A stretch of DNA of 64,000 nt. Source: Escherichia coli. GTDB taxonomy: Bacteria > Pseudomonadota > Gammaproteobacteria > Enterobacterales > Enterobacteriaceae. Position numbers and translations under genes: made by a program. The stretch lies in NCBI RefSeq assembly GCF_003019035.1, contig NZ_CP027447.1, one strand, 5' to 3'. The notes below the pieces were generated by a model. The model was not told the DNA's origin. It made no database searches and saw nothing but the letters and a program-made list of their open reading frames with translations. Numbering within the stretch: the stretch's first letter is position 1; the number at the start of each line of letters is the position of its first letter. Of this stretch, positions 5,008 to 26,611 are shown one piece after another.

Positions 5008-5550
5008 ATGAAATTAAGATTTATTTCGTCTGCGCTGGCCGCCGCACTATTCGCCGCTACGGGTAGTTATGCTGCCGTTGTAGATGGCGGTACAATTCAC
5101 TTTGAAGGCGAACTGGTGAATGCTGCCTGTTCAGTGAATACTGACTCGGCAGACCAGGTTGTCACACTCGGTCAATATCGTACCGATATTTTCAATGCTG
5201 TTGGTAATACCTCTGCATTAATTCCATTCACTATACAGTTGAACGACTGCGATCCTGTCGTTGCCGCTAATGCTGCCGTTGCATTTTCTGGTCAGGCGGA
5301 TGCAATCAATGATAATTTATTGGCCATTGCATCCAGTACTAATACAACAACAGCAACGGGTGTCGGTATTGAAATACTTGATAATACATCCGCAATTCTC
5401 AAACCTGATGGGAATAGCTTCTCAACCAACCAGAACTTGATCCCCGGGACCAACGTTCTTCATTTTTCTGCACGTTATAAAGGCACCGGTACAAGTGCAT
5501 CAGCAGGGCAAGCAAATGCTGACGCGACTTTTATTATGAGATACGAATAA
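5008..5550 (+). CDS. sfmA: type 1-like fimbrial major subunit SfmA
   Basis: 180-aa product with signal peptide [22 protein letters not shown] and fimbrillin C-terminus; start moved to ATG at 5008. Confidence 0.88.
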
Positions 5551-5768
5551 TCAAAACCACGTTGTTTTGAATTATATATCACGTCTTATAACAAAGTAAT
5601 GTACCGGTTGTCTGAAGCGGTATGGTGGCAATGTAAATCGAAATCACGTTCACTTTGTATCATGCCGCTTTATTAAATGAAAAGGGAATGATGTGTGTAA
5701 GAAACCAAAGCAATCATTTCTTTATACTCCTTATTTTTGCCGTCAGGAATACACAAGGCGTATTAACT

Positions 5769-6461
5769 ATGATGACTAAAATAAAGTTATTGATGCTCAT
5801 TATATTTTATTTAATCATTTCGACCAGCGCCCATGCTGCCGGAGGGATCGCATTAGGTGCCACGCGTATTATTTATCCCGCTGATGCTAAACAGACTGCG
5901 GTATGGATTAGAAATAGCCATACCAATGAGCGCTTTCTGGTCAATTCGTGGATTGAAAACAGCAGCGGTGTAAAAGAAAAGTCATTCATCATTACACCGC
6001 CACTGTTTGTTAGTGAACCCAAAAGCGAAAATACTTTGCGTATTATTTACACCGGTCCACCGCTGGCGGCAGATCGTGAGTCTCTGTTCTGGATGAATGT
6101 TAAGACGATCCCTTCGGTAGATAAAAATGCATTGAACGGCAGGAATGTTTTGCAACTGGCGATTTTATCGCGCATGAAATTATTTCTCCGTCCAATTCAA
6201 TTACAAGAATTACCCGCAGAAGCGCCGGACACACTCAAGTTTTCGCGATCCGGTAACTATATCAATGTTCATAATCCATCACCTTTTTATGTCACCCTGG
6301 TTAACTTGCAAGTGGGCAGCCAAAAACTGGGGAATGCTATGGCTGCACCCAGAGTTAATTCACAAATTCCCTTACCCTCAGGAGTGCAGGGAAAGCTGAA
6401 ATTTCAGACCGTTAATGATTATGGTTCAGTAACCCCGGTCAGAGAAGTGAACTTAAACTAA
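5769..6461 (+). CDS. sfmC: periplasmic fimbrial chaperone SfmC
   Basis: 230-aa PapD-like chaperone starting [13 protein letters not shown] with signal peptide; start trimmed from the longer track ORF. Confidence 0.88.
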
Positions 6462-6491
6462 CCGAATCATCTGACAATATCAGAGCTAATT

Positions 6492-9101
6492 ATGAAAATA
6501 CCCACTACTACGGATATTCCGCAGAGGTATACCTGGTGTCTGGCCGGAATTTGTTATTCATCTCTTGCCATTTTACCCTCCTTTTTAAGCTATGCGGAAA
6601 GTTATTTCAACCCGGCATTTTTATTAGAGAATGGCACATCCGTTGCTGATTTATCGCGCTTTGAGAGAGGTAATCATCAACCTGCGGGCGTGTATCGGGT
6701 GGATCTCTGGCGTAATGATGAGTTCATTGGTTCACAGGATATCGTATTTGAATCGACGACAGTAAATACAGGTGATAAATCAGGTGGGTTAATGCCTTGT
6801 TTTAACCAGGCACTCCTTGAACGAATTGGCCTTAATAGCAGTGCATTCCCCGAGTTAGCCCAGCAGCAAAATAATAAATGCATTAATTTACTGAAAGCTG
6901 TACCTGATGCCACAATTAACTTTGATTTTGCAGCGATGCGCCTGAACATCACTATTCCTCAGATAGCGTTGTTGAGTAGCGCTCACGGTTACATTCCGCC
7001 TGAAGAGTGGGATGAAGGTATTCCTGCTTTACTCCTGAATTATAATTTCACCGGTAACAGAGGTAATGGTAACGATAGCTATTTTTTTAGTGAACTCAGC
7101 GGGATTAATATTGGCCCGTGGCGTTTACGCAACAATGGTTCCTGGAACTATTTTCGCGGAAATGGATATCATTCAGAACAGTGGAATAATATTGGCACCT
7201 GGGTACAGCGCGCCATTATTCCGCTGAAAAGTGAACTGGTAATGGGAGACGGTAATACAGGGAGTGATATTTTCGATGGCGTTGGATTTCGAGGTGTACG
7301 GCTTTATTCTTCCGATAATATGTATCCTGATAGCCAGCAGGGGTTTGCTCCAACGGTACGTGGGATTGCCCGTACGGCGGCCCAGCTAACGATTCGGCAA
7401 AATGGTTTTATTATCTATCAAAGCTATGTTTCCCCCGGCGCTTTTGAAATTACAGATTTGCACCCGACATCTTCAAATGGCGATCTGGACGTCACCATCG
7501 ACGAGCGCGATGGTAATCAGCAGAATTACACGATTCCGTATTCAACAGTGCCAATTTTACAACGCGAAGGGCGTTTCAAATTTGACCTGACGGCGGGCGA
7601 TTTTCGTAGCGGTAATAGTCAGCAATCGTCGCCTTTCTTTTTTCAGGGCACGGCACTCGGCGGTTTACCACAGGAATTTACTGCCTACGGCGGGACGCAA
7701 TTATCTGCCAATTACACCGCCTTTTTGTTAGGGCTGGGGCGCAACCTCGGGAACTGGGGCGCAGTGTCGCTGGATGTAACGCATGCGCGCAGTCAGTTAG
7801 CCGACGACAGTCGTCATGAGGGGGATTCCATTCGCTTCCTCTATGCGAAATCAATGAACACTTTCGGCACCAATTTTCAGTTAATGGGTTACCGCTATTC
7901 GACACAAGGTTTTTATACCCTTGATGATGTTGCGTATCGTCGAATGGAGGGGTACGAATATGATTACGATTATGACGGTGAGCATCGCGATGAACCGATA
8001 ATCGTGAATTACCACAATTTACGCTTTAGTCGTAAAGACCGTTTGCAGTTAAATATTTCACAATCACTTAATGACTTTGGCTCGCTTTATATTTCTGGTA
8101 CCCATCAAAAATACTGGAATACTTCGGATTCAGATACCTGGTATCAGGTGGGGTATACCAGCAGCTGGGTTGGCATCAGTTATTCACTCTCATTTTCGTG
8201 GAATGAATCTGTAGGGATCCCCGATAACGAACGTATTGTCGGACTTAATGTTTCAGTGCCTTTCAATGTTCTGACCAAACGTCGCTACACCCGGGAAAAT
8301 GCGCTCGACCGCGCTTATGCCTCCTTTAACGCCAACCGTAACAGCAACGGGCAAAATAGCTGGCTGGCAGGCGTTGGTGGGACCTTACTGGAAGGCCACA
8401 ACCTGAGTTATCACGTAAGCCAGGGCGATACCTCGAATAATGGGTATACGGGCAGCGCCACGGCAAACTGGCAGGCCGCTTACGGTACGCTGGGGGTCGG
8501 GTATAACTACGACCGCGATCAACATGACGTTAACTGGCAGCTGTCTGGCGGTGTGGTCGGGCATGAAAATGGTATAACGCTGAGCCAGCCTTTAGGGGAT
8601 ACCAATGTTTTGATTAAAGCGCCAGGCGCAGGCGGTGTACGCATTGAAAATCAAACTGGAATTTTAACCGACTGGCGCGGCTATGCGGTGATGCCGTATG
8701 CCACGGTTTATCGGTATAACCGTATCGCGCTTGATACCAATACGATGGGGAATTCCATCGATGTTGAAAAAAATATTAGCAGCGTTGTGCCGACGCAAGG
8801 CGCATTGGTTCGTGCCAATTTTGATACCCGCATAGGCGTGCGGGCGCTCATTACCGTTACCCAGGGCGGAAAACCGGTGCCGTTTGGATCACTGGTACGG
8901 GAAAACAGTACCGGAATAACCAGTATGGTGGGTGATGACGGGCAAGTTTATTTAAGCGGTGCGCCATTGTCTGGTGAATTACTGGTTCAGTGGGGAGACG
9001 GCGCGAACTCACGCTGCATTGCGCACTATGTATTGCCGAAGCAAAGCTTACAGCAAGCCGTCACTGTTATTTCGGCAGTTTGCACACATCCTGGCTCATA
9101 A
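6492..9101 (+). CDS. sfmD: fimbrial outer-membrane usher SfmD
   Basis: 869-aa usher-sized ORF in chaperone-usher operon context. Confidence 0.9.
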
Positions 9102-9113
9102 AGGAAATTATCA

Positions 9114-10121
9114 ATGAAGATAATCTGCAGATTATTATTGGCAATGGCATGTTTGTGTCTAGCAAACATATCCTGGGCTACTGTTTGTGCAAATAGTACT
9201 GGCGTAGCAGAAGATGAACACTATGATCTCTCAAATGTCTTTAATAGCACCAATAACCAGCTAGGCCAGATTGTTGTTTTACCGGAAAAATCCGGCTGGG
9301 TAGGTGTATCAGCAATTTGTCCACCCGGCACGCTGGTGAATTATACATACCGTAGTTATGTCACCAACTTTATTGTTCAGGAAACTATCGATAATTATAA
9401 ATATATGCAATTAAATGATTATCTATTAGGTGCGATGAGTCTGGTTGATAGCGTGATGGATATTCAATTCCCCCCGCAAAATTATATTCGTATGGGAACA
9501 GATCCTAACGTTTCGCAAAACCTTCCGTTCGGGGTGATGGATTCTCGTTTGATATTTCGTTTAAAGGTTATTCGTCCCTTTATTAACATGGTGGAGATCC
9601 CCAGACAGGTGATGTTTACCGTGTATGTGACATCAACGCCTAACGATCCGTTGGTTACACCTGTTTATACCATTAGTTTTGGTGGCCGGGTTGAAGTACC
9701 GCAAAACTGCGAATTAAATGCCGGGCAAATTGTTGAATTTGATTTTGGTGATATCGGCGCATCGTTATTTAGTGCGGCAGGGCCGGGGAATCGACCAGCT
9801 GGTGTCATGCCGCAAACCAAGAGCATTGCGATCAAATGTACGAATGTTGCTGCGCAGGCTTATTTAACAATGCGTCTGGAAGCCAGTGCCGTTTCTGGTC
9901 AGGCGATGGTGTCGGACAATCAGGATTTAGGTTTTATTGTGGCCGATCAGAACGATACGCCGATCACGCCTAACGATCTCAATAGCGTTATTCCTTTCCG
10001 TCTGGATGCAGCTGCGGCAGCCAATGTCACACTTCGCGCCTGGCCTATCAGTATTACCGGTCAAAAACCGACCGAAGGGCCGTTTAGCGCGCTGGGGTAT
10101 TTACGCGTCGATTATCAATGA
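9114..10121 (+). CDS. sfmH: fimbrial adhesin-like subunit SfmH
   Basis: 335-aa ORF with signal peptide after the usher gene; FimH-like position. Confidence 0.8.
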   Translation: MKIICRLLLAMACLCLANISWATVCANSTGVAEDEHYDLSNVFNSTNNQLGQIVVLPEKSGWVGVSAICPPGTLVNYTYRSYVTNFIVQETIDNYKYMQLNDYLLGAMSLVDSVMDIQFPPQNYIRMGTDPNVSQNLPFGVMDSRLIFRLKVIRPFINMVEIPRQVMFTVYVTSTPNDPLVTPVYTISFGGRVEVPQNCELNAGQIVEFDFGDIGASLFSAAGPGNRPAGVMPQTKSIAIKCTNVAAQAYLTMRLEASAVSGQAMVSDNQDLGFIVADQNDTPITPNDLNSVIPFRLDAAAAANVTLRAWPISITGQKPTEGPFSALGYLRVDYQ

Positions 10122-10131
10122 GGTACGGAGA

Positions 10132-10647
10132 ATGAGAAGAGTACTCTTTAGCTGTTTCTGCGGGCTACTGTGGAGTTCCAGTGGATGGGCAGTTGACCCT
10201 TTAGGAACGATTAATATCAATTTGCACGGTAACGTTGTTGATTTCTCCTGTACCGTAAACACAGCGGATAAGGATAAGACGGTAGATTTAGGCAGATGGC
10301 CTACGACACAATTACTGAGCGCTGGCGATACCACGGCACTCGTCCCTTTTAGCCTGCGGCTGGAGGGATGTCCTCCGGGTTCAGTTGCGATTTTATTTAC
10401 GGGAACGCCGGCATCTGATGCCAACCTGCTGGCTCTGGATGATCCCGCAATGGCACAAACCGTCGCCATCGAATTACGTAATAGCGATCGCTCCCGGCTC
10501 GCACTGGGGGAGGCGAGCTCGACTGAGGAAGTTGATGCAAATGGCAATGTCACACTAAACTTTTTTGCCAATTATCGAGCGTTAGCCAGCGGTGTTCAGC
10601 CTGGTGTGGCGAAAGCGGATGCGATATTTATGATCAATTATAATTAA
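10132..10647 (+). CDS. sfmF: fimbrial minor subunit SfmF
   Basis: 171-aa product starting MRRVLFSCFCGLLWSSSGWA (signal peptide); ATG at 10132 preceded by GGAG; track ORF 9937.. is an upstream in-frame extension. Confidence 0.85.
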   Translation: MRRVLFSCFCGLLWSSSGWAVDPLGTININLHGNVVDFSCTVNTADKDKTVDLGRWPTTQLLSAGDTTALVPFSLRLEGCPPGSVAILFTGTPASDANLLALDDPAMAQTVAIELRNSDRSRLALGEASSTEEVDANGNVTLNFFANYRALASGVQPGVAKADAIFMINYN

Positions 10648-10649
10648 TA

Positions 10650-11282
10650 TTATATTAATTCATATAATTTGGCGTAGTCGATAAGCTCTACAATTGAATG
10701 CAAACCTAGCTTGCCATAAATATTAGATTTATGTGCACTAACTGTTTTATTGCTAAGTAATAACTTATCGGCAATTTCTTTATTAGATAATCCGCTAACC
10801 AGATAACGTAATATGGTTACTTCACGATTAGATAGCACAGTGACCGTTGAACTATTCGTACTACATTTATTGCTTTTTATATAGTTGAGCGTTTCGCTGG
10901 GAAAAAAAGTGTATCCGGAGAGAATCATCTGAACGGCATGAAAAATATCATTCTGATCATTGCATTTACTGACAAAACCGTTAGCACCAGCTTGTATCGC
11001 TCTGCCAGCATAAAAGCATTCTGATTTCGATGATAAAAATAATACTTTCACTGTACTCTGAATTTGTTTGATCCTTTTTAGGAAGGTAAAACCGTCTGTA
11101 CCGGGCAAGTCTATATCCATAATGATTAAATCAACAGGACGGGTTCGGAGATAATCGATGGTTATGCGGTAATCATCCGTTTTCAGGACAATCTGCAATT
11201 CACTGTTTTTTTGCAACAGAACTTCAATAGACATTCTGATGATAGGATGAGTATCCATAATGATCACCGACGTTGGTTTCAT
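10650..11282 (-). CDS. fimZ: LuxR/NarL-family response regulator FimZ
   Basis: 210-aa product from MKPTSVIIMDTHPII; receiver domain plus C-terminal LuxR helix-turn-helix; contains AGA/AGG arginine codons. Confidence 0.9.
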   Translation of the reverse strand: MKPTSVIIMDTHPIIRMSIEVLLQKNSELQIVLKTDDYRITIDYLRTRPVDLIIMDIDLPGTDGFTFLKRIKQIQSTVKVLFLSSKSECFYAGRAIQAGANGFVSKCNDQNDIFHAVQMILSGYTFFPSETLNYIKSNKCSTNSSTVTVLSNREVTILRYLVSGLSNKEIADKLLLSNKTVSAHKSNIYGKLGLHSIVELIDYAKLYELI

Positions 11283-11464
11283 AGTTACCAGTCTCATTGG
11301 ATCGGACAATTTTCCGTTAGGGCGGTAAATTGTACTTGATACATGAAAATACGGGTTTTCCTGATTCAGACGCGCAGCGGTGTGCGTTTGTTTGCCGCTA
11401 TAACGAAATAAATCAGAAAATCAGACGCGGTCGTTCACTTGTTCAGCAACCAGATCAAAAGCCA

Positions 11465-11492
11465 TTGACTCAGCAAGGGTTGACCGTATAAT
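11465..11492 (+). promoter_or_regulatory. candidate sigma70 promoter for argU
   Basis: TTGACT, 16-bp spacer, TATAAT located about 30 bp upstream of the tRNA 5' end. Confidence 0.55.
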
Positions 11493-11523
11493 TCACGCGA
11501 TTACACCGCATTGCGGTATCAAC

Positions 11524-11600
11524 GCGCCCTTAGCTCAGTTGGATAGAGCAACGACCTTCTAAGTCGTGGGCCGCAGGTTCGAATCCTGCAGGGCGCGCCA
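11524..11600 (+). tRNA. argU: tRNA-Arg (anticodon UCU)
   Basis: 77-nt sequence GCGCCCTTAGCTCAGTTGGATAGAGCAACGACCTTCTAAGTCGTGGGCCGCAGGTTCGAATCCTGCAGGGCGCGCCA with TCT anticodon loop and encoded CCA end. Confidence 0.95.
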
Positions 11601-11644
11601 TTTCTTCTTCATTTAATCCCGTCTTATCCGTTCCGCTTTGCTCT

Positions 11645-12406
11645 TCACCACATCACTTTTTGTCGCTGTTTGGCGAGATAATTCAACGGTGTCAGGCCGT
11701 AAAACGCCTTAAAAACAGAGATAAAGTACGACGTGCTGCTATAGCCACATAATTGCGCCACCTGAGTGATATTTTTGTTATCCATCAATAACATCTGTAC
11801 GGCGTAACGCATACGACACTCTGTGACAATCTGGCTATAGCTGGTATTTTCGTTTTTTAATTTCTTTTTGAGCAGGCTGGGGCTTAAACATAGCGAACTG
11901 GCGACAATTCGCAGATTCCAGTAATGCTGAATATCGCTTTGAATAATGCGGCAGACGCTGTCGCGGACGCTGCTGCGTAAGATATACATCAGTAGGGCAA
12001 TAAACCGCGATTGCTCAAGAAAGTTAGACAATACGGTAAAAAGCAATGCGCGCGTCAACTCCGCTTCGCAGGGTTTGCTGGGTTGCTGCTTGCTGTGGTT
12101 GGCGGCTAGCCGGAACACTTCCGGTGTACGGCTATGACAAGCGATAACCGGGGTTGCCAGCCGCGACCAGGGCTTTATACAGGTTAAGTTCTTATTTAAA
12201 AACAACAGATAATCGTTGATGATGTTACGGTTGATGTGGGTGATTAATACGTGATTTAACGTTGAGAGTTCAATGACGTTATTGTTGCACGCGAAGGCGG
12301 CCAGGTAGTTTTTCGGAAGGGTAAACGTAGCATGGTTATTGACGCTTACCTCTACCTCTTTTTCGGTCAGGATCACCACGCAAGGTTCACTGCTGCTCAA
12401 TTGCAT
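11645..12406 (-). CDS. envY: AraC-family transcriptional regulator EnvY
   Basis: 253-aa ORF with C-terminal AraC-type helix-turn-helix; full-length match to recalled EnvY. Confidence 0.85.
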   Translation of the reverse strand: MQLSSSEPCVVILTEKEVEVSVNNHATFTLPKNYLAAFACNNNVIELSTLNHVLITHINRNIINDYLLFLNKNLTCIKPWSRLATPVIACHSRTPEVFRLAANHSKQQPSKPCEAELTRALLFTVLSNFLEQSRFIALLMYILRSSVRDSVCRIIQSDIQHYWNLRIVASSLCLSPSLLKKKLKNENTSYSQIVTECRMRYAVQMLLMDNKNITQVAQLCGYSSTSYFISVFKAFYGLTPLNYLAKQRQKVMW

Positions 12407-12588
12407 TTCGCACTCCTCAGATATCAGAAACTCCGCTCAAAGGATCTATGCTTCCTGCATGAGTGATCGGCCCGTTCGCCGATAACGATCTTCTTTCTTT
12501 AGCACGCTTTTTAGCAATTAATCTTGATGGAATTCTGACGAGAGCGAAAGAGGTAAGCCAGGTCGTACCCGACTTACCTGGAGGAGAT

Positions 12589-13479
12589 TTAATACTCGAG
12601 AATGCCGTGCGCGACGGGCAAATAGCGCAGAGAGAAATAGAGCGTGTCTTTACCGCAAGAGGAACGTTTCGCTAACAGCGAGGCAATTTCTGCGTCCGGT
12701 TTCGGTTTCGCTGTAAAGGTTTTGCCTTTGCCGGCGACAAACAGTTCATAAACAATGCCGCTTGCTGGGGCGGAGCTTTGGCAATCGGCGCTGGCCTGTA
12801 GATAACGTTCACGCTGTTCAGCGGTCAGTTTATCCACGCCGCTGCCATCCTGTACCCAGACATTAACGCCGGTTGCTTTAACGTGTTCCAGCAGTTGGCG
12901 ATAGCCATCGGGCGACATGTTTCCGGCGAAAAAACTACTGATATAAACCGGTTTTGCTGAAACATCGCTAATCAACCGCTGCGCGTTGTTTAACCATGTT
13001 AGCAAAGGCTGACGGGCGGCTTCGCTGCGCCAGTTCAGGTCGTCAATTTCCGCGCTGATGTACCAGCCATCCGGCGTTACGCCAGGTACGGCGCTCCATA
13101 ATCTGGCTTGCTGGAGATCGGCAGCCAGCAGGCGGTTAAGATAGCTTTCCAGCGCTGCAGACGACTGTTTCTGGTGCATAAAAAATTCCGGATCGGCATT
13201 CAGCCCGACAATCAGCTTCAGGCCAGCCTGTTGCGCAGCTGCGGCACGCTTAAACAATAACGCGTGCTGTTCTGGCTGGGTGAATGCATCGCCGTAACGA
13301 GTCCATTGCAAAACCAGGGTATCGAAGCCTTGCAAACGTAACTGACTCATCAGCCCCTGCCACTGGGTATCGGTAACCTGACTATCACGGTTTTGTGGTT
13401 GCCAGATAATACCTTTCATCGCAAAGGAAAAAGGGCTGACCAAAAGCAGTGTCAGCAATACGAAAATGAACTTACGCAT
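12589..13479 (-). CDS. ybcH: DUF4434-family protein YbcH
   Basis: 296-aa secreted protein, conserved neighbour directly downstream of nfrA. Confidence 0.85.
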   Translation of the reverse strand: MRKFIFVLLTLLLVSPFSFAMKGIIWQPQNRDSQVTDTQWQGLMSQLRLQGFDTLVLQWTRYGDAFTQPEQHALLFKRAAAAQQAGLKLIVGLNADPEFFMHQKQSSAALESYLNRLLAADLQQARLWSAVPGVTPDGWYISAEIDDLNWRSEAARQPLLTWLNNAQRLISDVSAKPVYISSFFAGNMSPDGYRQLLEHVKATGVNVWVQDGSGVDKLTAEQRERYLQASADCQSSAPASGIVYELFVAGKGKTFTAKPKPDAEIASLLAKRSSCGKDTLYFSLRYLPVAHGILEY

Positions 13480-16452
13480 TTACCAGTGCACTCCAATGGT
13501 GAGAAACGCATTGTTGCGCTCTCCGTTACGTTGATTAATCGCCTTAAAGGTATGTTGATACTCGACGCCGAGACTGACTTTGTGCGGCCAGGCGTCGTAG
13601 TGCGTCTCGCCGGTCCAGATATTCCAGCGGACCCCGACACCGCCAAGCTGCGCGCCCTGAGTGCCTTTATCACGATAGCCGTTGTCCTGAACGTGAGCGT
13701 AAGGCTCAATAGTCTGTCCGTTAGCTACCTTCTGATGCCAGCTGACGCGATAATCTGCCGTCCACGCCTGAATATCCTGGCGGATATATTGCGCTGCATC
13801 GAGGTACAGGTTTTGGGCAAACCAGCCTGAACCGTTCGGGTGCCATTCGTCGCTGTATTTGCCGCCATTAAAGAATGAGGCGCTGGCGCGCAGCATGGTA
13901 TCGGATGCGCCATTTTGCCCGTTCAGCGGCAACTGCTGTTCGACGGCGAGGAAAAAGATCTGATCGCGCAGCGGCTTCCAGCGCAGACCGGTGCCGGACA
14001 TCGGATTTTTCACCGGCATCATCACCCCGTTTTCTCCAGTATCGGCAAATACACGGCTGTAAACCGAGAGCAGGTCGCCTTCCAGCAGCATATTGCGTCC
14101 GATGCGATACTCGGCTTCCAGTTGCCCGTAGCTACGATAGCTTTTCCCTGGCGCTGCGCCGCCGACATTATTGTTAGCGGTACTCATTGCGCCGGAACGC
14201 AAGCCGATAGAAGAATCGAAACTGAACGTCCAGCGGCGACCGACCTCCTCATGCAGACGGCGGAAATTGAAGCGTTGCTGATTTTGCTCTGGGGTCAGTG
14301 GGGTTATCAGCGCCTGATTATCAATGTCATCAATCACCAGCCGGGCGTAGTGCTGCGTCGCAGGCATGTCATCCAGACGCTGGTTCACGTAGGCCAGTTG
14401 TCGGATAAGTGCCGGATCGTCCGGTAGCCCTTTATGCGCCTGTTCGAGCATTTCCCGCGACTGTGCGATATCACCGCTATCCCACAAGGCGTAACCGAGC
14501 GCTGCCTGGGTGTTGCTATTATTCGGTTCCAGTTCCAGCGCGGCGCGCAAATCACTCACCGCCGCCGGGACATTATGACGTTGGCGATAAATTGTCGCCC
14601 GCGCAACGTAAGCGTTGGCAGAAGGCGCAATATTGATTGAGCGCGTGAGATCGTTCAGTGCGAGTTCCGGCTGACCAGGAATGTAACGTTGCGCATGCAG
14701 CCACCAGTAGAGGGCATTGTTTCCCAGCCCACGTTGTTCTGCCTGCTGAAGCCAGCGATCGCGAGCCGCACCATTTCCTGCCGCCTGGGCGGTATTGGCA
14801 GCAGCAAGCAGATCCTCATTGCTCATGTCGTGAAGACTGATTTTCTGCCAGGCCGCCAGTGCGGTGGCGTAGTCCTCAACCTGATACGCCTGATAGGCTA
14901 CCGCACGATGTTGCCAGGCGTTCGGTTGTCGTTGTTCGGCCTGAAGCCATGCATACAACGCCACACCGGGTAGCGTGTCCCGATAACACTTTGCCAGACG
15001 GTTCCAGGCGGCGGCATCGTAGGAAGGCGACATATCGCCCAGCAAGCGAACTATTGCCGGGCAATTATCTGCAATACCCGGCAACTGACTTTGCCACTGA
15101 CGTTGCTCCGCCAGCGGTAAAGGTTTCGATAAAATCGCCACCTTCGCCGGCGTTGCCAGGTAAGGATGACTTTCCAGCAGAGACGCCAGTCGCGCCATTA
15201 ACGTCTGGCTGACACGCGCATCGCCCTGGAAAGGATAGCGTTGCAGCAATAAATCGGCAGCTTCGCGTGACTGCTCGTTCTGCATCAGTTGCCAGGTCAG
15301 TTGATCCAGGCGGGTAAGATTTGCCGGTTCTTGCTGATACAGCAATCGTGCCAGACGCAGAGCTTCAGCCTTGTTATGGGTCGCTACGCTAACGGTATAA
15401 CGCTCCTCAAGCATTTCATTGGCGGGGAGGGTGGCGAGCAGTTTTTGCGCTGCGTCGTACTGACCTTCTTTTAACAGCACCGGTAGCGTCGCGCCAACAA
15501 CATACTGGCGGTTATCGGCAAACTGTACCGTATAATTCGCCAACGCCTGAACGGGGTTGACGCTGTATTTAGATAACAGATAGAGCCAACTTTTCTCTTG
15601 TGCGTCCGTGGTAAACAGCGGCTTATTTTCAATGAGATAATGCTGGAGGCGCGCTTTTTCGCCACGATAAGCCAGCGCGGTCGCGTAAGTAATATATGAC
15701 TGAGGATCGGTGAAGATCCCCTGTGATTGCAGCGCCAGGATCCGATCATCCAGCTGCGCGGCAAGAAGCACGTCAAACCACTGACGGCGTTCTGCCGCGC
15801 TTAATGTGTTCTGCTGGCGTGCTTCATTATATAGCGTATCTGCCTGGGACCATTGTTTCAGGTAGATTGCGCGTTGCAGCAGATCGGTTCGCAACGTTTT
15901 TCCTTCCGGCGATGCAGCAAACGTCGCATCGTTTAGTTGCGCTCTGGCGACAGGTAATTGTGCCAGCCGCAGGGCATTCTGCCCGACTTCACTGCGACAA
16001 CGCAGGGTCGGCGCAGCGTCGCACGCTTTTTGCTGGGCAAGCAGTTCTTCAACAGTCGTAACGCTTTTCACTTCAACTGGAATAGCCGCCAGACTGCGCT
16101 CAAGTCGGGCATCTCCTGGGTGACGTTTCAGTTGATCCTCAAGCAACAGCCGCGCCCGGTCATCATGACCAAAATGGCGATAGGCTTCCGCAAGGTATAA
16201 AGTCAGCGGAATATTATCCGGCACCTGCTGGTGTATATATTCAAATTCGCGGATGGCGGTTGCTTCGTCGTTATTTTTCTGTGCCTTCAGCGCCTTGTCG
16301 AGACGGGGATAAATAACGAAATGGCGATAATCGCTCAGCCCCAGCTCTTCTGCGCTGGTGCCGATATTGTCTGCGAGTGCGCTGGTACTCAATAAAGACG
16401 TCAGCAGTAAACCAGACCATCCGATGACGCGATTAAGGTTATTCTCCTTCAT
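13480..16452 (-). CDS. nfrA: bacteriophage N4 adsorption protein A (outer-membrane TPR protein)
   Basis: 990-aa product from MKENNLNRVIGWSG... with signal peptide; start trimmed from the 997-aa track ORF. Confidence 0.9.
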   Translation of the reverse strand: MKENNLNRVIGWSGLLLTSLLSTSALADNIGTSAEELGLSDYRHFVIYPRLDKALKAQKNNDEATAIREFEYIHQQVPDNIPLTLYLAEAYRHFGHDDRARLLLEDQLKRHPGDARLERSLAAIPVEVKSVTTVEELLAQQKACDAAPTLRCRSEVGQNALRLAQLPVARAQLNDATFAASPEGKTLRTDLLQRAIYLKQWSQADTLYNEARQQNTLSAAERRQWFDVLLAAQLDDRILALQSQGIFTDPQSYITYATALAYRGEKARLQHYLIENKPLFTTDAQEKSWLYLLSKYSVNPVQALANYTVQFADNRQYVVGATLPVLLKEGQYDAAQKLLATLPANEMLEERYTVSVATHNKAEALRLARLLYQQEPANLTRLDQLTWQLMQNEQSREAADLLLQRYPFQGDARVSQTLMARLASLLESHPYLATPAKVAILSKPLPLAEQRQWQSQLPGIADNCPAIVRLLGDMSPSYDAAAWNRLAKCYRDTLPGVALYAWLQAEQRQPNAWQHRAVAYQAYQVEDYATALAAWQKISLHDMSNEDLLAAANTAQAAGNGAARDRWLQQAEQRGLGNNALYWWLHAQRYIPGQPELALNDLTRSINIAPSANAYVARATIYRQRHNVPAAVSDLRAALELEPNNSNTQAALGYALWDSGDIAQSREMLEQAHKGLPDDPALIRQLAYVNQRLDDMPATQHYARLVIDDIDNQALITPLTPEQNQQRFNFRRLHEEVGRRWTFSFDSSIGLRSGAMSTANNNVGGAAPGKSYRSYGQLEAEYRIGRNMLLEGDLLSVYSRVFADTGENGVMMPVKNPMSGTGLRWKPLRDQIFFLAVEQQLPLNGQNGASDTMLRASASFFNGGKYSDEWHPNGSGWFAQNLYLDAAQYIRQDIQAWTADYRVSWHQKVANGQTIEPYAHVQDNGYRDKGTQGAQLGGVGVRWNIWTGETHYDAWPHKVSLGVEYQHTFKAINQRNGERNNAFLTIGVHW

Positions 16453-18855: not shown

Positions 18856-20160
18856 GGGTAACGCAGGGAAAGATTACGAAAGCCCGCTCCCCGCAAGGAC
18901 TGACGCCAGATAGTTTCTGTCCATGGCTGCTTTTCGCATCTTACGTCTTAACCCTGCCTTGAATACCTTATCATTCGTCAAAATATTAATAGCGATGTGC
19001 CGTATCCCTGAAAATAATTCTGCTGCATTTCCTCTTCTTATTTTGCAGTCGTCTTCATTCATTACCACGTCCAGACGCCAGTGCAGCTTATTCTCCACGT
19101 GCCAGTGGTTTCGGATTGCTGTGGCGAACTTCTCTGCGGTTAAATCAGCAGAACTGATATAATATCTGACCGTCATTTCGGGCTCTTTCTTTTGTTCTGC
19201 TATTATTGACCGAAAGGAGACTGCCACGCATAATTTCTTCAGACCTTTCCATTCAAACGTGAAATCAATAAGTTCATCAGGGACATCGCAAACAATGTGA
19301 AGACGGATTTCTTCTCTGCCGTGACTCTTTTCACTCATTGCGTAACTGTCATGCTCTGGATTATTTAATTCTTTCAGCGGAAATTTTTCCTCGAAGGCTT
19401 TATTTAGCCGCCCCTGGTTTCCTTTTACAGCGAATAAATAATCACCTCCCTGTTTTTGTATCTTCTCTGCAATATCTTTCTGGCAACCCATCGCATCAGT
19501 TGTGATGATTTTTCCTTTAATATCCAGCATGTTAAGAAGTTCTTGGATAGCTGTAATCTCATTGGATTTCTCATCCGTCCTGATCTGTCCGATGACCAGA
19601 CTATGCATTGTTGAGAACGCACTAATGACATGAATCGCTCCCTTGCGGCGACTCTTGTCATAAGAGTGCCGGAGCGTTTTTCCATCAATTGCAATGACGC
19701 CTTTATCATCTGAAGAATGGCAGTCACGCATCCAGTTAATAAAGCACTCGTGAAATTTTGCAGGACTGATACAGGATACAACTCTGGCAATGGTATCGTG
19801 AACAGGAATACCATTTTCAAAATCACCATATTGCTTCAAAAAATCGAGATGTGTTTCCCCAAAATCCTCTATATCTTCCCAGCCTTCTGCACCAGAAATA
19901 ACGGCACAAATAGTCAACAGTAGAATATCCGACAATTTATGTTCCACTTTCCAGGCTTGTCTGTACTCGGGAATAACAGAAATATGTTCTATCAATTTTT
20001 TAAGTACCATTTTGTTCTCCTTAATTATGTAAGGAGTATTTGATCATGTATAAGCAATAAAAAACAGCTTCAGGTAATGAGGAATATCTCAATTTTTAAA
20101 CATAAAATGCGAATTATTTAGTACAAAAAAGCAGCGTTACGTGATCTTTCCCTGTGTAAT
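18856..20160 (-). mobile_element. H-repeat / ISAs1-family insertion sequence (about 1.3 kb)
   Basis: Contains the 378-aa H-repeat-associated transposase; imperfect terminal inverted repeats centred on CAGGGAAAGAT (18861-18878 versus reverse complement of 20139-20156, 15/17 identical); boundaries approximate to about 5 bp. Confidence 0.75.
18874..20010 (-). CDS. ISAs1-family (H-repeat-associated, YhhI-like) transposase
   Basis: 378-aa [53 protein letters not shown]...; near-identical to the recalled E. coli H-rpt protein family. Confidence 0.9.
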
Positions 20161-20834
20161 CCCCCAGCTAAATCATGAACTTTTTGAGCCATTTTACTTA
20201 ATTCAGGGCAGGCTCCTAAACCTAATGGATCTGTGAAGCAACACGGATTCAGCACATAACCATAAGTGTTTAGTCCACCCAATACACCCAGGGGGTCACT
20301 CACCAGATACATCCCGGTCTCCGGCTCGTAGTACCGGAACCGGTTATAGCACAGCCCTGACTCCGCATCCCGCCACTGCCCCGCATACAGCAGACCGGGG
20401 TCCGCTTCTGCGTCTCGCTCCCCGCGCGGGTCCGGGTAGTCCCTGTCTGCGCTGACGCTGAGTGCCAGCCCCCACAGGCTGGTCTGCTCCGCACGCCACA
20501 CCACGTTACCCTGACTGTTAAAGAGCATCACCGGGCGGCCTGTCAGGTCGCTTACCGCATGGCTGGTCCGCGTCACCCACTGCGGGGCCACGGACGGGTG
20601 CGGCTGCCGTACCCGGCTGAACTGCTGGCTTATCAGCTCAAAGCCGTTAAACACCAGGTACCGCACACTGTACAGTTTATCATCGCGGTATTCCCGGATT
20701 TCCGCAATAGTGTCGCCGTCCCACAGATATGTGATGCGGAGGGCTTTTTGTTTGCAGCGTTTCTCTGTCCGTCTGCCACTGGCGTCGTGGCAGTATTCCC
20801 ACTGCTCACCCCGGGCGCTGCGGTAGCCGATCAC
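20118..20834 (-). pseudogene. orphan rhs C-terminal fragment (last about 206 aa of Rhs core plus a truncated alternative tip)
   Basis: Homologous to residues about 1260-1470 of the upstream Rhs through the PxxxxDPxGL core end (DPLGL); no upstream ORF or canonical start; only about 19 native residues follow DPLGL before the reading frame runs into the IS terminal repeat. Confidence 0.7.
20217..20834. repeat. direct repeat copy 1 (rhs core 3' end, orphan copy)
   Basis: About 620 bp, high-identity copy of 21694-22311 visible in both nucleotide and protein alignment. Confidence 0.75.
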
Positions 20835-20863
20835 GGCTGTCGTGGCGGAACTTTATCTCTTTT

Positions 20864-21253
20864 TTATTTAATCCAGTAAGCTAATCTCTCACCAATCTTC
20901 AAATTTTCTCTTTTGTAATAAAATACAGTATCAAAGTTAATGGATATTTTTTTCGCAATAACTTTGAATTTCAATTCAAATTCCGAATAAAACTCTAATA
21001 CTAACATTTCACGAGCATTGTCAGTGCAACTTGATAGCTTAATAAACTCCTCATTAAGATCGCATGACCAGTCCATAACACCGCTAATATAGCATGGCGT
21101 GTCTATTATTATTTCCAGTGTGTGATAGTAAGAAAGGTCATCACTCCCGGAAATAATCAAGCGATTATGTTCATAAAGAAAAACTGAAAAATCCAACCAA
21201 CTTTCTTTCCAATTATGGTGCTTTATATCATTAATTATGTTTTGCTCACTCAT
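20864..21253 (-). CDS. candidate cognate immunity protein for the Rhs C-terminal toxin
   Basis: 129-aa AT-rich ORF; its ATG overlaps the rhs TGA stop in a 4-bp ATGA overlap; positional analogy to rhsI genes; no family recognised from sequence. Confidence 0.6.
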   Translation of the reverse strand: MSEQNIINDIKHHNWKESWLDFSVFLYEHNRLIISGSDDLSYYHTLEIIIDTPCYISGVMDWSCDLNEEFIKLSSCTDNAREMLVLEFYSEFELKFKVIAKKISINFDTVFYYKRENLKIGERLAYWIK

Positions 21254-24200
21254 GGAATAGTTCCTGTAGGCAATGGTATATGAGTATCATTTGCAGCTCC
21301 TGGATTATAATTCGGACTTTTAGTTTTCAAATCAGATGTATGATGCCAACTGCCATCAGGAGAACCATACTCCCAACCATAGCCTTGATTAGTCGCAGGA
21401 TTTGTTCCACTTTGGCTTCTACCAATCCTATATATGGGGCCATTGGCAGAATTACTCCCTGCTGGAGCAGTAGGGTTTACATCATGAGCCCTTACTTCAT
21501 ATTTATAATTTCCGACGGTGAATTTTTCTTTAAATTTTATAGGGTAGTTATGCCCAGACAAGCCTTGCCGATGTAAAGCATAATTTAACACATCCTGCGG
21601 TGAGGTATTTTTAATTGCTTGATGCGCTTGTGCTGCTGTCATACCTTGAGAACGATTGTATTTATACCAATCATACATCACAGGACATATAGCTAATCCC
21701 AAAGGATCAACATACCCCAGCGGATTAGGCACATACCGGTAAGTCTGCTCACCCCCCAGCAACCCCAGTGGATCACTCACCAGGTACATCCCGGTTTCCG
21801 GCTCGTAATACCGGAACCGGTTATAGCACAGCCCCGATTCCGCATCCTGCCACTGCCCCGCATACAGCAGGCCGGGGTCGGCTTCCGGGTCCAGCTCCCC
21901 GCGCGGGTCCGGGTAGCCGGTGTCTGCGGGCAGGCTGAGTGCCAGCCCCCACAGGCTGGTCTGCCCCGGTCGCCAGACGGTTTTACCTTCACTGTTAAAG
22001 AGCACCAGCGGACGGCCCGTCAGGTCGCTCACCGCATGATTCGTTCGCGTCACCCACTGCGGGGCCACGGACGGATGCGGCTGCCGTACCCGGCTGAACT
22101 GCTGACTCAGCAGCTCAAAGCCGTTAAACACCAGGTGCCGTACGCTGTACAGTTTATCATCCCGGTATTCCCGCATTTCCGCAATACTGTCGCCGTCCCA
22201 CAGATACGTAAAACGGATTTTCTTCCGGTCGCAGCGTTTTTCCGTCCGCCTGCCGCTGGCGTCGTGGCGGTATTCCCACTGCTCACCCTGTGCGCTGCAA
22301 TACCCGGTCAGCTGGTCCCGGCTGTCCCACCGGAACCGCTCTGTTTCCGGGCGGTAGCCGTCACGGTGTCTGGTGCGGCTGACCATCCGGCCTGCGGCGT
22401 CATAGCTGTAGTCTGTGTTTCCGGTCTGTTTCAGCCGGTGGCCGCGCTGATACATGTCAGTATCCACGCTTATCCGGTGCCTGCCCGCCGACTGCGCCTT
22501 CAGGTAGCCACAACTGTCATAGCCATAGGACTCATCGCCTTCGCCATAGCCCAGCCCGGTGCCTGAGGCTGTCACCGCCGTGACCTGGCCGTTCCGGTCC
22601 AGCCGGTACTCCCGCCGTGTTTCCCGTCCGTAGTCTTCCCGGCTGGTGACAGCCGACATATTGCCCGCGCTGTCGTAACGGTACTCCCGCACCAGTGAGG
22701 GGAGCAGTCCGCCCCATGTGGCTTCCGCCGGGAAAAGTCCGGCGCGCTGGCTGGTAAGCTGACCGGCTGCATTCCAGCCCTGCTCACAGGCAAAACCCCG
22801 GTTACTGTGCCGGAGCACTTCACGTCCTGCCTCATCACGGCTGAACGTCAGCGTCTCATCCCCCGGCAGGATAACCTCCGTCAGTTCTCCGGCGGCGTTG
22901 TAGCGGTAGGTGGTTTTCAGCAGGGATTCACCGGGGTGTCTGTCGCGTTCATCTTCCGGTGGCAGGATACAGCGGATGACGGTGTGTTCATCGGGGTGGT
23001 GGTATTCAATGGCCCGTCGGCCCTGAGTGGTGACATTCACCCGCCCGCGTTCGTCATAGCCGGTGCGCTGTGATGTACCGTCCGGGCTGAAGATACCCGT
23101 CAGCCTGCCGGATTTGTCATAGGCATACTGCGTTTTGCCTTCCGGCGAGATGACTTCTGCCAGGCGGCCTGCGGCGTCCCGGCTGTAGAGGATAGTTTCC
23201 TCCAGGCCGTTAACCCTGGCGGTACAAAGGCCATCGGCGTCATAGCGGTAACGCCAGACCACGCCGCCCCAGTCACGCTCTTCCGTCACCCGTCCACAGT
23301 TGTCCAGAATATAACGGTATGACTCGCCCTGCGGATTGATGACTTCTGTCAGTTGCAGCGTGTCTTTATCGTAGCGGTACTGCCAGCGGTGGCCTTCACC
23401 GTCCGTTCGCGCCACCGGCAAATCGAACGGGCCGTATTCCATCGTCCAGACAACGCCGTTGCCGTCCGTCCAGGCCAGCAGGTTGCCGTGGCGGTCATAG
23501 CGAAATCCTTCCGCGCCGGTGCCAGTGCGTTCAAGGCCGCTCAGTTTATGGTGCTGCTGCCACCGTAACCGCACTGACTGACCGCCGGGGCCGCGCATCT
23601 TCACCGGCAGGTCGTGACCGCTGTATTCGGTGTGGTGTTCACGGCCCATCACGTCGGTGAGTGTTTCCGGCCGGTTGTGGTGGTCGTACTCTATGCCCAG
23701 ACGCCGTTCATCCTGGCGGAATATCCCCGACAGCAGCCCCTGCGGCGTGTACGCCAGCCGGGTCTCTTCGCCCTGTGGCGACACCAGACTTACCGGCAGG
23801 CCGCGTTCATCACACTGCTGCGTCCACATCTGCCCGGCAGGGTCGGTGATGTTGCTGAGCAGGCCGCGCTCATCATAGCAGTACTGCCACTCCGCACCGT
23901 CTGCCGCCGTGTAACGGCTTAACTGACCGTGTGCGGCGTTGTATTCAAACTTCTCCACCCGCCCGGCAGGGGAGTGGCGGGCCAGCAGGTGATGGAATTC
24001 ATCCCATTCATACATGGTGGTGCTGCCGTCCGGCGCTGCTTCCCGCAGAATATTGCCGTCAGGATCATAGTAATAACGGTGAATGCCCTTGCCGTCCGTC
24101 ACGGTGGTGCAGCCGTCACCATAGTCCAGCGTGGCGTTGTAATAGCCCTCCGCCCCGGTGACGGTCACGCACCGGCCCTGTGCATCGTAGGTGAAACGGC

Positions 24201-26103
24201 TCCACGTCTGGTCGTTATCGGACCAGCGGATGATCCGGTCCGCAGCGTCGTACTCATAAAACAGGTGGTAGTCCAGCCGCGCATCCGCTTCTGTCAGCCG
24301 CCCCCGCGCATCCTGTTCGTAGGTCGCCAGCATCTGTATGCCGTTATCCGTACGGTGAATGGCTTTCAGGTAGCCGCTGGCATGGTACGTCAGTTTAAGC
24401 CGGATCCCGTCGGTGTGACTGACACCCATGATGCGGTACTGGCTGTCGCGCTCAAACGTGATGCGGTTGCTGGCGGTGTCGCTCATCCCGCCCAGCATGT
24501 ACATCCGGTCTGCGGGGCTGTGTGCCAGACGGTCATCGCAGGTATCGTCAGTCACCGGGTGGCGCAGGCGCATTCCCGGAAAGGCGTCATAAAAGAAGCG
24601 GCTGCTCAGTGCATCACGGTCGAACAGCTCCAGGTAATCGTCGCGGCGGCGCAGAATGTACTGGGCGTGATACGGGTTAACCGCCGTATCACTGTCACCG
24701 TCGAAGGCAAATCTCAGCGTGGTTCCCTGGCTGATGATATCCACCCGGTTTCCCTGTTCACGCACCCAGGCGTATTCGCTCCAGGAGTCGCTCCAGCCCA
24801 CGCCCGTCAGACCATGCAGCGGCAGTACAGAACTGTGGAAACGGGTGAAGGAGAGGGGGAGTGTCTGGCCCAGCGTAAAGTCGGTACGTTCGTCGCAGTA
24901 TGCGCCGGTTACCGGATCGACAGGATCTGTTACCCATCTGATGACTTTATTGGCAATACTTTTTAACGACTTACCTGTTTTCCCCAGCAACGCGCCGAGC
25001 TTTGCCCCCAGCAGCTTCCCGCTTTTCCCCAGCAGGTTTCCCAGTTTGCCGAGTTTCGCCAGATTCCCCAGTTTTCCCAGCAGTCCCGCGGGCGGCAGAA
25101 GATAGCTGGCTATCGTTATTCCCCCCAGGATCATTCTCTGCCACGGCGGGAACTCCGGCTGGATATCCAGATAGGTCACCTGTTCACCGCCAATAAAGAC
25201 GTCCGGCGAACCTTCCACGATTGCCGCGCTGCACTCCAGTTTGTCCCCTTTGCGTGCGGCAGTCTGATTGTTGATAAAGACGTTGCTGCTGCCCTGGGCT
25301 ATCCTCGGTGGTTTGTTCTCCTTGTCGCAGAGCGCCGTGTCCTCACCGGCTTCCGGGAAATCCACGTCTTTTTTGATTTCGCCACGCCCGCCCACCATGG
25401 TGGCAAACTCCATTAATACCGGACCGGCGGGAAACAGAAGCGATGCGCCGGCGCTGACGCGATCCATAATACCGGCATTGCTGTCCGTCAGGGTGATAAC
25501 AGCGTTCCCCCAGGCCTTCGCCAGTGGTACTGCTTTTTCCGCTGCCGATTCAAGCAGGTCAGTGGCAATATCACCCCATGAGGGTTCCCCCTGTGGTGGA
25601 GAGGGTATTGCTTCAGTCAGGGGAGGAGGGGGAAGGGTGACGGCGGCCCTGGCAGCGGGCTTTCCGTTAATGTTTACATTTTTAGAACCAGTATTGATGG
25701 CCCCGTCCGTGTCACAAAAACTGTTTATCCATGATTCAAGCTGGTTCTGTTTCTCCTCCACATAATCACTCGCCTTATAGCTGGCATACATCAGCGCAGG
25801 CACCAGAACCAGCGCATAAGGGCCGGTGGCACAGGCGGCCATAATCAGGCAACCTTCTGCGATGGTCACTATCGCCCCCAGCACGGCCCCTGCCAGCGCC
25901 CCCAAAAAACTCTTGTGCTGAATTTCATCGCCCAGCCTGGCTGCGGGGGGGCCAGACTTTTTTGATGCCAACATCTGTGCAATGGCTTTGTCGTTGGCTG
26001 CCCGTTTCATCTGGCTGGCGACCATCGCCTGCTGTGACAGCATTCGCATTGCCAGCGTACCGCCTGCGGTCGCTCCCTGTGGCCCGCCTGGTCCTTCACT
26101 CAT
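21250..26103 (-). CDS. rhs: prePAAR/PAAR-domain Rhs-family polymorphic toxin (T6SS effector) with variable C-terminal toxin tip
   Basis: 1617-aa ORF: N-terminal AARLGDEIQH (prePAAR-like AARxxDxxxH), hydrophobic helices, PAAR-like segment (ARKGDKLECSAAIVEGSPDVFIGG), long YD/Rhs repeat region, core terminating at DPLGL, then a 147-aa low-GC tip. Confidence 0.9.
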   Translation of the reverse strand: MSEGPGGPQGATAGGTLAMRMLSQQAMVASQMKRAANDKAIAQMLASKKSGPPAARLGDEIQHKSFLGALAGAVLGAIVTIAEGCLIMAACATGPYALVLVPALMYASYKASDYVEEKQNQLESWINSFCDTDGAINTGSKNVNINGKPAARAAVTLPPPPLTEAIPSPPQGEPSWGDIATDLLESAAEKAVPLAKAWGNAVITLTDSNAGIMDRVSAGASLLFPAGPVLMEFATMVGGRGEIKKDVDFPEAGEDTALCDKENKPPRIAQGSSNVFINNQTAARKGDKLECSAAIVEGSPDVFIGGEQVTYLDIQPEFPPWQRMILGGITIASYLLPPAGLLGKLGNLAKLGKLGNLLGKSGKLLGAKLGALLGKTGKSLKSIANKVIRWVTDPVDPVTGAYCDERTDFTLGQTLPLSFTRFHSSVLPLHGLTGVGWSDSWSEYAWVREQGNRVDIISQGTTLRFAFDGDSDTAVNPYHAQYILRRRDDYLELFDRDALSSRFFYDAFPGMRLRHPVTDDTCDDRLAHSPADRMYMLGGMSDTASNRITFERDSQYRIMGVSHTDGIRLKLTYHASGYLKAIHRTDNGIQMLATYEQDARGRLTEADARLDYHLFYEYDAADRIIRWSDNDQTWSRFTYDAQGRCVTVTGAEGYYNATLDYGDGCTTVTDGKGIHRYYYDPDGNILREAAPDGSTTMYEWDEFHHLLARHSPAGRVEKFEYNAAHGQLSRYTAADGAEWQYCYDERGLLSNITDPAGQMWTQQCDERGLPVSLVSPQGEETRLAYTPQGLLSGIFRQDERRLGIEYDHHNRPETLTDVMGREHHTEYSGHDLPVKMRGPGGQSVRLRWQQHHKLSGLERTGTGAEGFRYDRHGNLLAWTDGNGVVWTMEYGPFDLPVARTDGEGHRWQYRYDKDTLQLTEVINPQGESYRYILDNCGRVTEERDWGGVVWRYRYDADGLCTARVNGLEETILYSRDAAGRLAEVISPEGKTQYAYDKSGRLTGIFSPDGTSQRTGYDERGRVNVTTQGRRAIEYHHPDEHTVIRCILPPEDERDRHPGESLLKTTYRYNAAGELTEVILPGDETLTFSRDEAGREVLRHSNRGFACEQGWNAAGQLTSQRAGLFPAEATWGGLLPSLVREYRYDSAGNMSAVTSREDYGRETRREYRLDRNGQVTAVTASGTGLGYGEGDESYGYDSCGYLKAQSAGRHRISVDTDMYQRGHRLKQTGNTDYSYDAAGRMVSRTRHRDGYRPETERFRWDSRDQLTGYCSAQGEQWEYRHDASGRRTEKRCDRKKIRFTYLWDGDSIAEMREYRDDKLYSVRHLVFNGFELLSQQFSRVRQPHPSVAPQWVTRTNHAVSDLTGRPLVLFNSEGKTVWRPGQTSLWGLALSLPADTGYPDPRGELDPEADPGLLYAGQWQDAESGLCYNRFRYYEPETGMYLVSDPLGLLGGEQTYRYVPNPLGYVDPLGLAICPVMYDWYKYNRSQGMTAAQAHQAIKNTSPQDVLNYALHRQGLSGHNYPIKFKEKFTVGNYKYEVRAHDVNPTAPAGSNSANGPIYRIGRSQSGTNPATNQGYGWEYGSPDGSWHHTSDLKTKSPNYNPGAANDTHIPLPTGTIP
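21253..21693 (-). other. Rhs C-terminal toxin domain (147 aa after DPLGL); candidate WHH/HNH-type nuclease
   Basis: Abrupt drop in GC content after the DPLGL junction; motif GSWHHTSD...NYNPGAAN...THIP near the C-terminus resembles the His-His...Asn...His arrangement of HNH/EndoVII-fold toxin domains. Confidence 0.45.
21694..22311. repeat. direct repeat copy 2 (rhs core 3' end, main gene)
   Basis: Homologous to 20217-20834; substrate for homologous recombination that would swap toxin tips. Confidence 0.75.
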
Positions 26104-26122
26104 GTGTTATCCCTCGTTTATG

Positions 26123-26584: not shown

Positions 26585-26611
26585 AAAATACTCCCTGTTA
26601 ATCTGAGTGAA

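Follow-up and report, generated by a model that had tools for sequence, protein, structure and literature searches.

In Salmonella, two reviews (PMC6527747 and PMC11316696, on Swenson 1994 and Tinker & Clegg 2001) report that deficiency of the tRNA gene fimU affects only FimY, FimZ not being dependent on it, and that FimY and fimbriation are restored when the first three AGA/AGG (hereafter AGR) codons of fimY are recoded. Control of FimB by leuX tRNA is reported for uropathogenic Escherichia coli (Ritter 1997), and the EcoVIII restriction endonuclease is throttled by tandem or clustered AGR codons near its N-terminus (PMC6456624). Here we compare these systems with the response regulator gene fimZ and its neighbour argU, the gene for tRNA-Arg(UCU), in a 64,000-nt stretch of E. 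coli DNA (the window; RefSeq assembly GCF_003019035.1, contig NZ_CP027447.1), of which positions 9000–13500 are 100% identical to strain SCU-301.

The Salmonella fimU/FimY locus is orthologous to that of the window, with a tRNA differing at 3 of 77 positions, a shared fimZ and structural operon, and AGR codons in the regulators. It differs in that its proven target, fimY, is gone from Escherichia together with fimW and stm0551, and in that the AGR codons of E. coli fimZ are scattered singletons. The EcoVIII endonuclease gene resembles fimZ as an AT-rich, horizontally-transferred-looking gene with AGA/AGG codons read by argU, but clustered AGR codons near the start are needed there, whereas fimZ has no such cluster and the only one in our locus is the AGA-AGA of sfmF. 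The leuX/FimB system likewise has a minor tRNA that modulates a fimbrial regulator via rare codons; it involves another tRNA and codon (UUG) and another fimbrial system, and is reported as experimentally demonstrated.

Both the rare codons of fimZ and the hypothesis that argU tunes it have been in the literature since 2008. Garcia-Contreras et al. 2008 (PLoS One 3:e2394, PMC2408971), who studied Hha, rare tRNAs and the bias of E. coli fimbrial genes towards rare codons, list for E. coli fimZ two AGA and one AGG codons against 0.3 and 0.16 expected, and six ATA against 1.6 expected (Table S4). They point out that fimZ and argU are neighbours, both bound by Hha, and draw the parallel with Salmonella fimU/FimY. 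In the same work argU was repressed 5.6-fold on Hha induction, and Hha also repressed proL and bound at ileX and ileY, rare tRNA genes elsewhere. Kisiela et al. 2013 (PMC3604780) show E. coli sfm plus tRNA-Arg to be the positional ortholog of Salmonella fim. The 2008 paper has the same fimZ counts as ours and notes the same adjacency to argU and parallel with fimU; it differs in having no control for gene composition, no orthologs, no fimY deletion and no FimZ translation test. The fimZ/argU observation therefore repeats a supplementary table and, being explained by composition and inherited synteny, adds little to it. On the evidence below, it is likely that argU exerts no special tuning on FimZ in E. 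coli, a weak effect apart, which is possible; the three AGR codons of fimZ are what 35% GC predicts, and other E. coli genes that are AT-rich and poorly expressed show the like.

Arginine codon usage of fimZ and base composition

The open reading frame (ORF) and annotation place fimZ at positions 10650–11282 on the minus strand, with 210 codons, an ATG at 11282 and a NarL/FixJ-type response regulator as product. The identity of FimZ rests on a match to the NCBIfam equivalog model NF007403 over residues 1–210 (447 bits against a cutoff of 271), together with a Pfam receiver domain (Response_reg, PF00072) and a LuxR/GerE helix-turn-helix domain (GerE, PF00196). The gene has 35.5% GC, and 34.8% at third codon positions (GC3); 400-base windows across it (10400–11199) gave 43% and 38% GC.

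Eight arginine codons are found in fimZ, namely AGA16 (11235–11237), AGG70 (11073–11075, within FLKRIKQ) and AGA94 (11001–11003, within AGRAIQ), all on the minus strand, besides three CGT, one CGC and one CGA. A first-pass annotation of the window, made from the letters alone, had called at least three AGA/AGG codons in the gene, and its codon calls and coordinates proved exact throughout. It had also held that their share is far above that of typical E. coli genes, and that a frequency no higher than the genome average would speak against this. A full codon count was made, with 375 kb of this genome (239 ORFs, from the window and five 50-kb stretches) sampled as background. AGR codons account for 6.3–6.6% of the arginine codons of the sample, or 3.5–3.7 per 1000 codons, and for 37.5% (3/8) of those of fimZ, about six times the sample mean (binomial P(≥3 of 8) = 0.011), which ranks the gene about fifth among 232 by AGR fraction. 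The frequency is thus higher than average, as claimed.

The claim of an excess does not hold against genes of matched composition. Those with GC3 below 0.40, leaving out sfm and fimZ, have AGR at 22 of 87 arginine codons (25%), and the 3/8 of fimZ is no significant departure from this (binomial P = 0.33, Fisher P = 0.43). Base composition alone leads to an expectation of 49% AGR for fimZ, above the 37.5% observed, and other AT-rich minor codons are equally raised, with ATA at 6 of 23 isoleucine codons (8% in the background), three CTA and nine TTA. Compared with composition-matched genes of the same genome, then, no AGR enrichment of fimZ was found, and because the GC3-matched share, the composition expectation and the raised ATA, CTA and TTA all agree, AT-richness suffices to explain why fimZ exceeds the genome mean in AGR. 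Two control genes indicate, moreover, that adjacency to argU and AGR use are unrelated, since envY, 44 bp from argU, has no AGR among 13 arginine codons, while hprR, megabases away, has 13 among 18.

The E. coli locus as remnant of an ancestral fimbrial module

ARAGORN and RefSeq agree on argU as a tRNA-Arg gene at 11524–11600 on the plus strand; its anticodon UCU reads AGA/AGG, as the first-pass annotation had recognized, and ARAGORN found it to be the single tRNA gene of the window. That annotation had, however, put argU downstream of fimZ. The tRNA gene in fact lies upstream of the fimZ start on the opposite strand, and the two genes stand head-to-head across a divergent intergenic region of 241 bp (11283–11523), measured from the fimZ ATG to the 5' end of the tRNA. 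The 77-nt argU sequence is 100% identical to annotated tRNA-Arg of E. coli genomes (median one copy per genome), has no mismatch to the E. albertii tRNA and three mismatches to the fim-linked tRNA of Salmonella, fimU, whose ortholog it is. A promoter-like site, TTGACT-16 nt-TATAAT, precedes argU at 11465–11492 on the plus strand with 11 of 12 consensus matches. On the minus strand of the 241-bp gap, no sigma-70-like promoter for fimZ was detected at the scan threshold, and the gap could not be aligned with the region upstream of Salmonella fimZ past about 20 nt.

Orthologous loci were gathered by protein search with their encoding contigs, and by a metagenome scan with alignment. They came from E. 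albertii, Salmonella, Citrobacter koseri, Cedecea, Kosakonia, Buttiauxella, Scandinavium, Lelliottia, Huaxiibacter, Dryocola, a relative of Enterobacter ludwigii and about ten metagenomic lineages. A scan of genome contigs with a single FimZ protein was abandoned; it returned one true ortholog (E. albertii), the other matches being generic LuxR-family response regulators of 26–39% identity. In the window and in Salmonella, Citrobacter, Cedecea, Kosakonia, Buttiauxella, Scandinavium, Lelliottia and Dryocola, fimZ is convergent with the fimF, fimH, usher and chaperone genes of a Salmonella-type fim cluster. In the loci outside Escherichia where the tRNA was found, tRNA-Arg(UCU) is divergent from fimZ and lies 1.7–3.1 kb upstream of it; the intervening gap holds fimY in the loci with called genes, and in several also fimW and/or a gene for an EAL phosphodiesterase. 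The fetched flanks of Cedecea, a Cedecea-like lineage (L090), Buttiauxella and Dryocola contained no tRNA, which was present in all other orthologous loci with enough flank. The tRNA-Arg(UCU) gene is thus a physical part of the fim regulatory cluster.

Between fimZ and the tRNA lie just 241–256 bp in E. coli and E. albertii, a close spacing unique to Escherichia, and alignment to other genera is lost in Escherichia in the DNA 5' of the fimZ ribosome-binding site. A blastn search with the Salmonella fimW-stm0551-fimY DNA gave no match in 5,426 complete E. coli genomes, and in the window there is no fimY between argU and fimZ, merely the 241 bp. The sfm-fimZ-argU arrangement is therefore the E. 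coli counterpart of Salmonella fimAICDHF-fimZ-fimY-stm0551-fimW-fimU, and the locus is the Escherichia remnant of an ancestral enterobacterial fimbrial regulatory module of the Salmonella-like type-1 kind. In most relatives, tRNA-Arg(UCU) (fimU, equivalent to argU) is divergent from a row of regulators, in the order fimW, the EAL phosphodiesterase gene, fimY and fimZ, with this row converging on the fimbrial structural operon. The Escherichia lineage deleted about 2–3 kb with fimW, the phosphodiesterase gene and fimY, leaving fimZ head-to-head with argU. The adjacency of fimZ and argU is inherited and was tightened by deletion; the tight spacing is a by-product of the loss of the middle of the module. 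The first-pass annotation had drawn a parallel with fimU-dependent control in Salmonella, which is well founded in that the loci are true orthologs; the regulator that depends on fimU there is FimY, however, and this is the one deleted in Escherichia.

Rare arginine codons across fimZ orthologs

The supply of argU tRNA probably has at most a weak influence on FimZ synthesis, because the AGR codons of fimZ are isolated singletons (16, 70 and 94) and an N-terminal cluster of the FimY type is absent. Salmonella fimY has AGG7, AGA9 and AGA14, three AGR within the first 14 codons, besides AGA94 and AGA222; no such cluster was found in E. coli fimZ. The fimZ gene of Salmonella has AGA at three positions (16, 94 and 97).

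Several observations weigh against the conclusion that E. coli FimZ escapes special argU tuning. Across 22 distinct fimZ sequences, all below 97% nucleotide identity and with a third-position identity of about 0.40, codon 16 is AGA in 15, AGG in six and CGC in one (Dryocola), and a 23rd, frameshifted metagenomic copy (L109) has AGA as well, so that AGR is retained in 22 of 23. Neutral expectations were derived from a synonymous-only HKY (Hasegawa-Kishino-Yano) model on a neighbour-joining tree, with 83 invariant non-arginine columns and a synonymous tree length of about 14 substitutions per site. Under this model, AGR at codon 16 in at least 21 of the 22 tips has P = 0.02 at the whole-gene rate or P = 0.07 at the slower rate of codons 2–22; codon 70, with AGR in 16 of the 20 orthologs that have arginine there, has P = 0.13–0.18. 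The codon-16 pattern hints at selection keeping AGR at this position, which, with several arginine columns examined, is suggestive only. The linkage of the tRNA with fim is kept across many genera, and the binding of Hha to argU and fimZ with repression of argU (PMC2408971) makes some regulatory coupling in E. coli possible. The background of the codon comparison, finally, is a sample with mechanically called ORFs and not the whole annotated genome. The retention of AGR16 in 22 of 23 diverged orthologs thus leaves room for a modest argU dependence.

Elsewhere in the gene AGR is less frequent among the orthologs with arginine, at 6/22 for codon 94, which is not conserved, 5/22 for codon 153, 3/22 for codon 159, 1/22 for codon 46 and 0/14 for codon 39. 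Dryocola (L177), the only sampled ortholog with CGC16, also has no tRNA-Arg(UCU) within 4 kb upstream, and Cedecea and Buttiauxella keep AGA16 although a linked tRNA was not found. Loss of AGR16 in one of four unlinked against none of 19 linked lineages is not a significant difference.

A conserved 5' block and palindrome in fimZ

The start of fimZ at ATG 11282 is backed by a gapless alignment of the orthologs and by a conserved Shine-Dalgarno (SD) sequence, which the alignment of upstream regions gives as TGAGG in other genera and TGAGA in the window (11292–11296, minus strand). Two in-frame codons, an ATG at 11297 with AGA directly after it and a TTG at 11309, precede this start. ATG 11297 was considered as the true start, which would give a fourth AGR, at codon 2, and was rejected because the conserved SD sequence and all ortholog N-termini fit ATG 11282.

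Synonymous change in codons 2–22 of fimZ proceeds at about half the rate seen over the remaining codons, the tree lengths being 7.0 and 15.4 substitutions per site. Within codons 5–20, where it is low, CCT13 is found in 21 of the 22 sequences, TCG18 in 20 and the rare ATA19 in 18. Most orthologs outside Escherichia carry over codons 13–20 an imperfect palindrome, CTATYG-N9-CGATAG, which spans +38 to +58 of fimZ (for example 5038–5058 in the orthologous locus L088; the homologous E. coli stretch is 11225–11245) and holds AGR16 in its 9-nt spacer. Over 18 distinct sequences, 92% of cells have its inverted repeat of 6+2 bp paired, and where codon 14 varies between C and U, C-G or U-G pairing is preserved. 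Compensatory double changes were sought in these 18 sequences and none was seen, so that there is no covariation support. In E. coli and E. albertii, both also without fimW and fimY, the palindrome is broken, and in Salmonella, Kosakonia and Buttiauxella it contains a single mismatch; AGR16 is kept in all of these.

This putative element accounts for the near-fixed CCT13, TCG18 and ATA19, and what the conservation of AGR16 reflects may be such an element at the nucleotide level (an mRNA hairpin or a DNA operator) and not the rarity of the codon. A pairing that would sequester the SD sequence, between the upstream TCTGAGG and the CC...TCAGA of codons 13–16, was also considered and dropped, since minimum free energy folds of single sequences are without it and Escherichia lacks the upstream half.

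Arginine codons of the sfm operon

The fimbrial operon sfmA-sfmC-sfmD-sfmH-sfmF (5008–10647, plus strand) is convergent with fimZ and has AGR at 14 of its 84 arginine codons. The sole clustered rare-arginine context in the locus is the tandem AGA AGA at sfmF codons 2–3 (10135–10140, plus strand), which is not conserved in fimF elsewhere; sfmF opens with ATG AGA AGA (10132–10140), and other early AGR codons are AGA4 of sfmA, AGA6 of sfmH and AGG12 of sfmD. We looked in Salmonella for counterparts of these early codons and found fimF, fimH and fimC to be without any AGR codon, upon which the idea of conserved early AGR codons in fimbrial structural genes was rejected. The AGR richness of the sfm structural genes is specific to E. 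coli, a pattern more in line with a poorly expressed cluster drifting in composition than with a conserved regulatory design.

Alternative explanations

Were AGA and AGG to make FimZ synthesis limited by tRNA-Arg(UCU), argU abundance, varying with growth rate or with repression by Hha, would tune FimZ and then sfm, as fimU does FimY; the first-pass annotation had suggested tuning of sfm by argU abundance. Such a circuit would place a cryptic E. coli fimbria under the influence of Hha/H-NS silencing and of a minor tRNA whose level follows growth state, and would extend the fimU paradigm of Salmonella to a master regulator. The link was proposed by the 2008 authors, and Hha does bind and repress argU (PMC2408971); in addition, three of eight arginine codons of fimZ are AGR, one of them inside the first 25 codons, AGR16 (22 of 23) and AGR70 (16 of 20) are conserved together with the tRNA linkage, and the E. 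coli sfm genes are AGR-rich, with AGA-AGA at codons 2–3 of sfmF. We nonetheless regard such tuning as unlikely. Lone AGR codons in weakly expressed chromosomal genes seldom limit translation, and those of fimZ are isolated, with a frequency explained by AT-richness. The AGR richness of sfm is confined to E. coli, conservation across orthologs has weak statistical support (P of 0.02–0.07), and fimY is deleted in E. coli. Salmonella FimZ, moreover, has three AGA codons, yet the reviews name only FimY as hit by fimU loss. A deeper version of the same idea would make FimZ an ancient client of the fim-linked tRNA, marked by AGR16, and largely by AGR70, being kept across Enterobacteriaceae despite near-saturated synonymous divergence and together with the tRNA linkage, and by Dryocola having neither AGR16 nor a linked tRNA; E. 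coli would then retain a stripped-down argU-to-FimZ-to-sfm circuit after the loss of FimY, with sfmF as a second sensitive step. To this we attach rather little credence.

The retention of AGR16 could also be explained without the tRNA, if the codon were kept as part of a conserved nucleotide element within roughly the first 60 nt of the fimZ ORF, with the palindrome acting as an mRNA hairpin or as an operator for a dimeric regulator. The halved synonymous rate of codons 2–22, the near-fixed CCT13, TCG18 and ATA19, and the 92% paired inverted repeat, whose pairing survives variation at codon 14 and whose spacer includes AGR16, all agree with this. We still consider it fairly improbable, as compensatory changes are lacking, the repeat is broken or mismatched in lineages that keep AGR16, and positions in a spacer or loop need no constraint. 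Causality might even run in reverse, the deletion having put the argU promoter about 180 bp from AT-rich fimZ DNA that is probably bound by H-NS/Hha, so that spreading silencing or coupling of divergent promoters would let the fimZ DNA influence argU, whose transcription would come to respond to Hha/H-NS. The 35.5% GC of fimZ, the strong argU promoter (11465–11492), a close spacing unique to Escherichia, and the Hha enrichment at argU and fimZ with 5.6-fold repression of argU (PMC2408971) are in keeping with this scheme. It appears very unlikely, because Hha repressed proL and bound ileX and ileY elsewhere, which implies that adjacency to fimZ is not required. The absence of special argU tuning of FimZ remains our preferred reading. 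Three by-products accompany it, namely the recognition of the Escherichia locus as a deletion derivative without fimY, fimW and the phosphodiesterase gene, the weakly significant conservation of AGR16 across genera, and the conserved 5' palindrome of fimZ with reduced synonymous change in other genera.

Neighbouring and other AGR-rich regions

The other immediate neighbour of argU, envY, used above as a control, occupies 11645–12406 on the minus strand. The region at argU (11601–12406) contains no DLP12-type prophage, appY or ompT, envY following 44 bp past the tRNA 3' end. Of 5,424 complete E. coli genomes, only 2,388 have the stretch 9000–13500 contiguous, which would fit frequent insertions at argU in the others.

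AGR use far more extreme than that of fimZ was seen, apart from any linkage to argU, in hprR and hprS of the same strain (L004, 45935–47964), where AGR makes up 13 of 18 arginine codons in hprR and 10 of 27 in the hprS ORF as called. In the window itself, the called ORFs of the ISAs1/Rhs/VgrG region downstream of nfrB (18874–20528 and 20000–28000) are AGR-rich, with for example 9 of 21 arginine codons at 18874–20010; for the same region the RefSeq annotation lists RHS and transposase pseudogenes with frameshifts.

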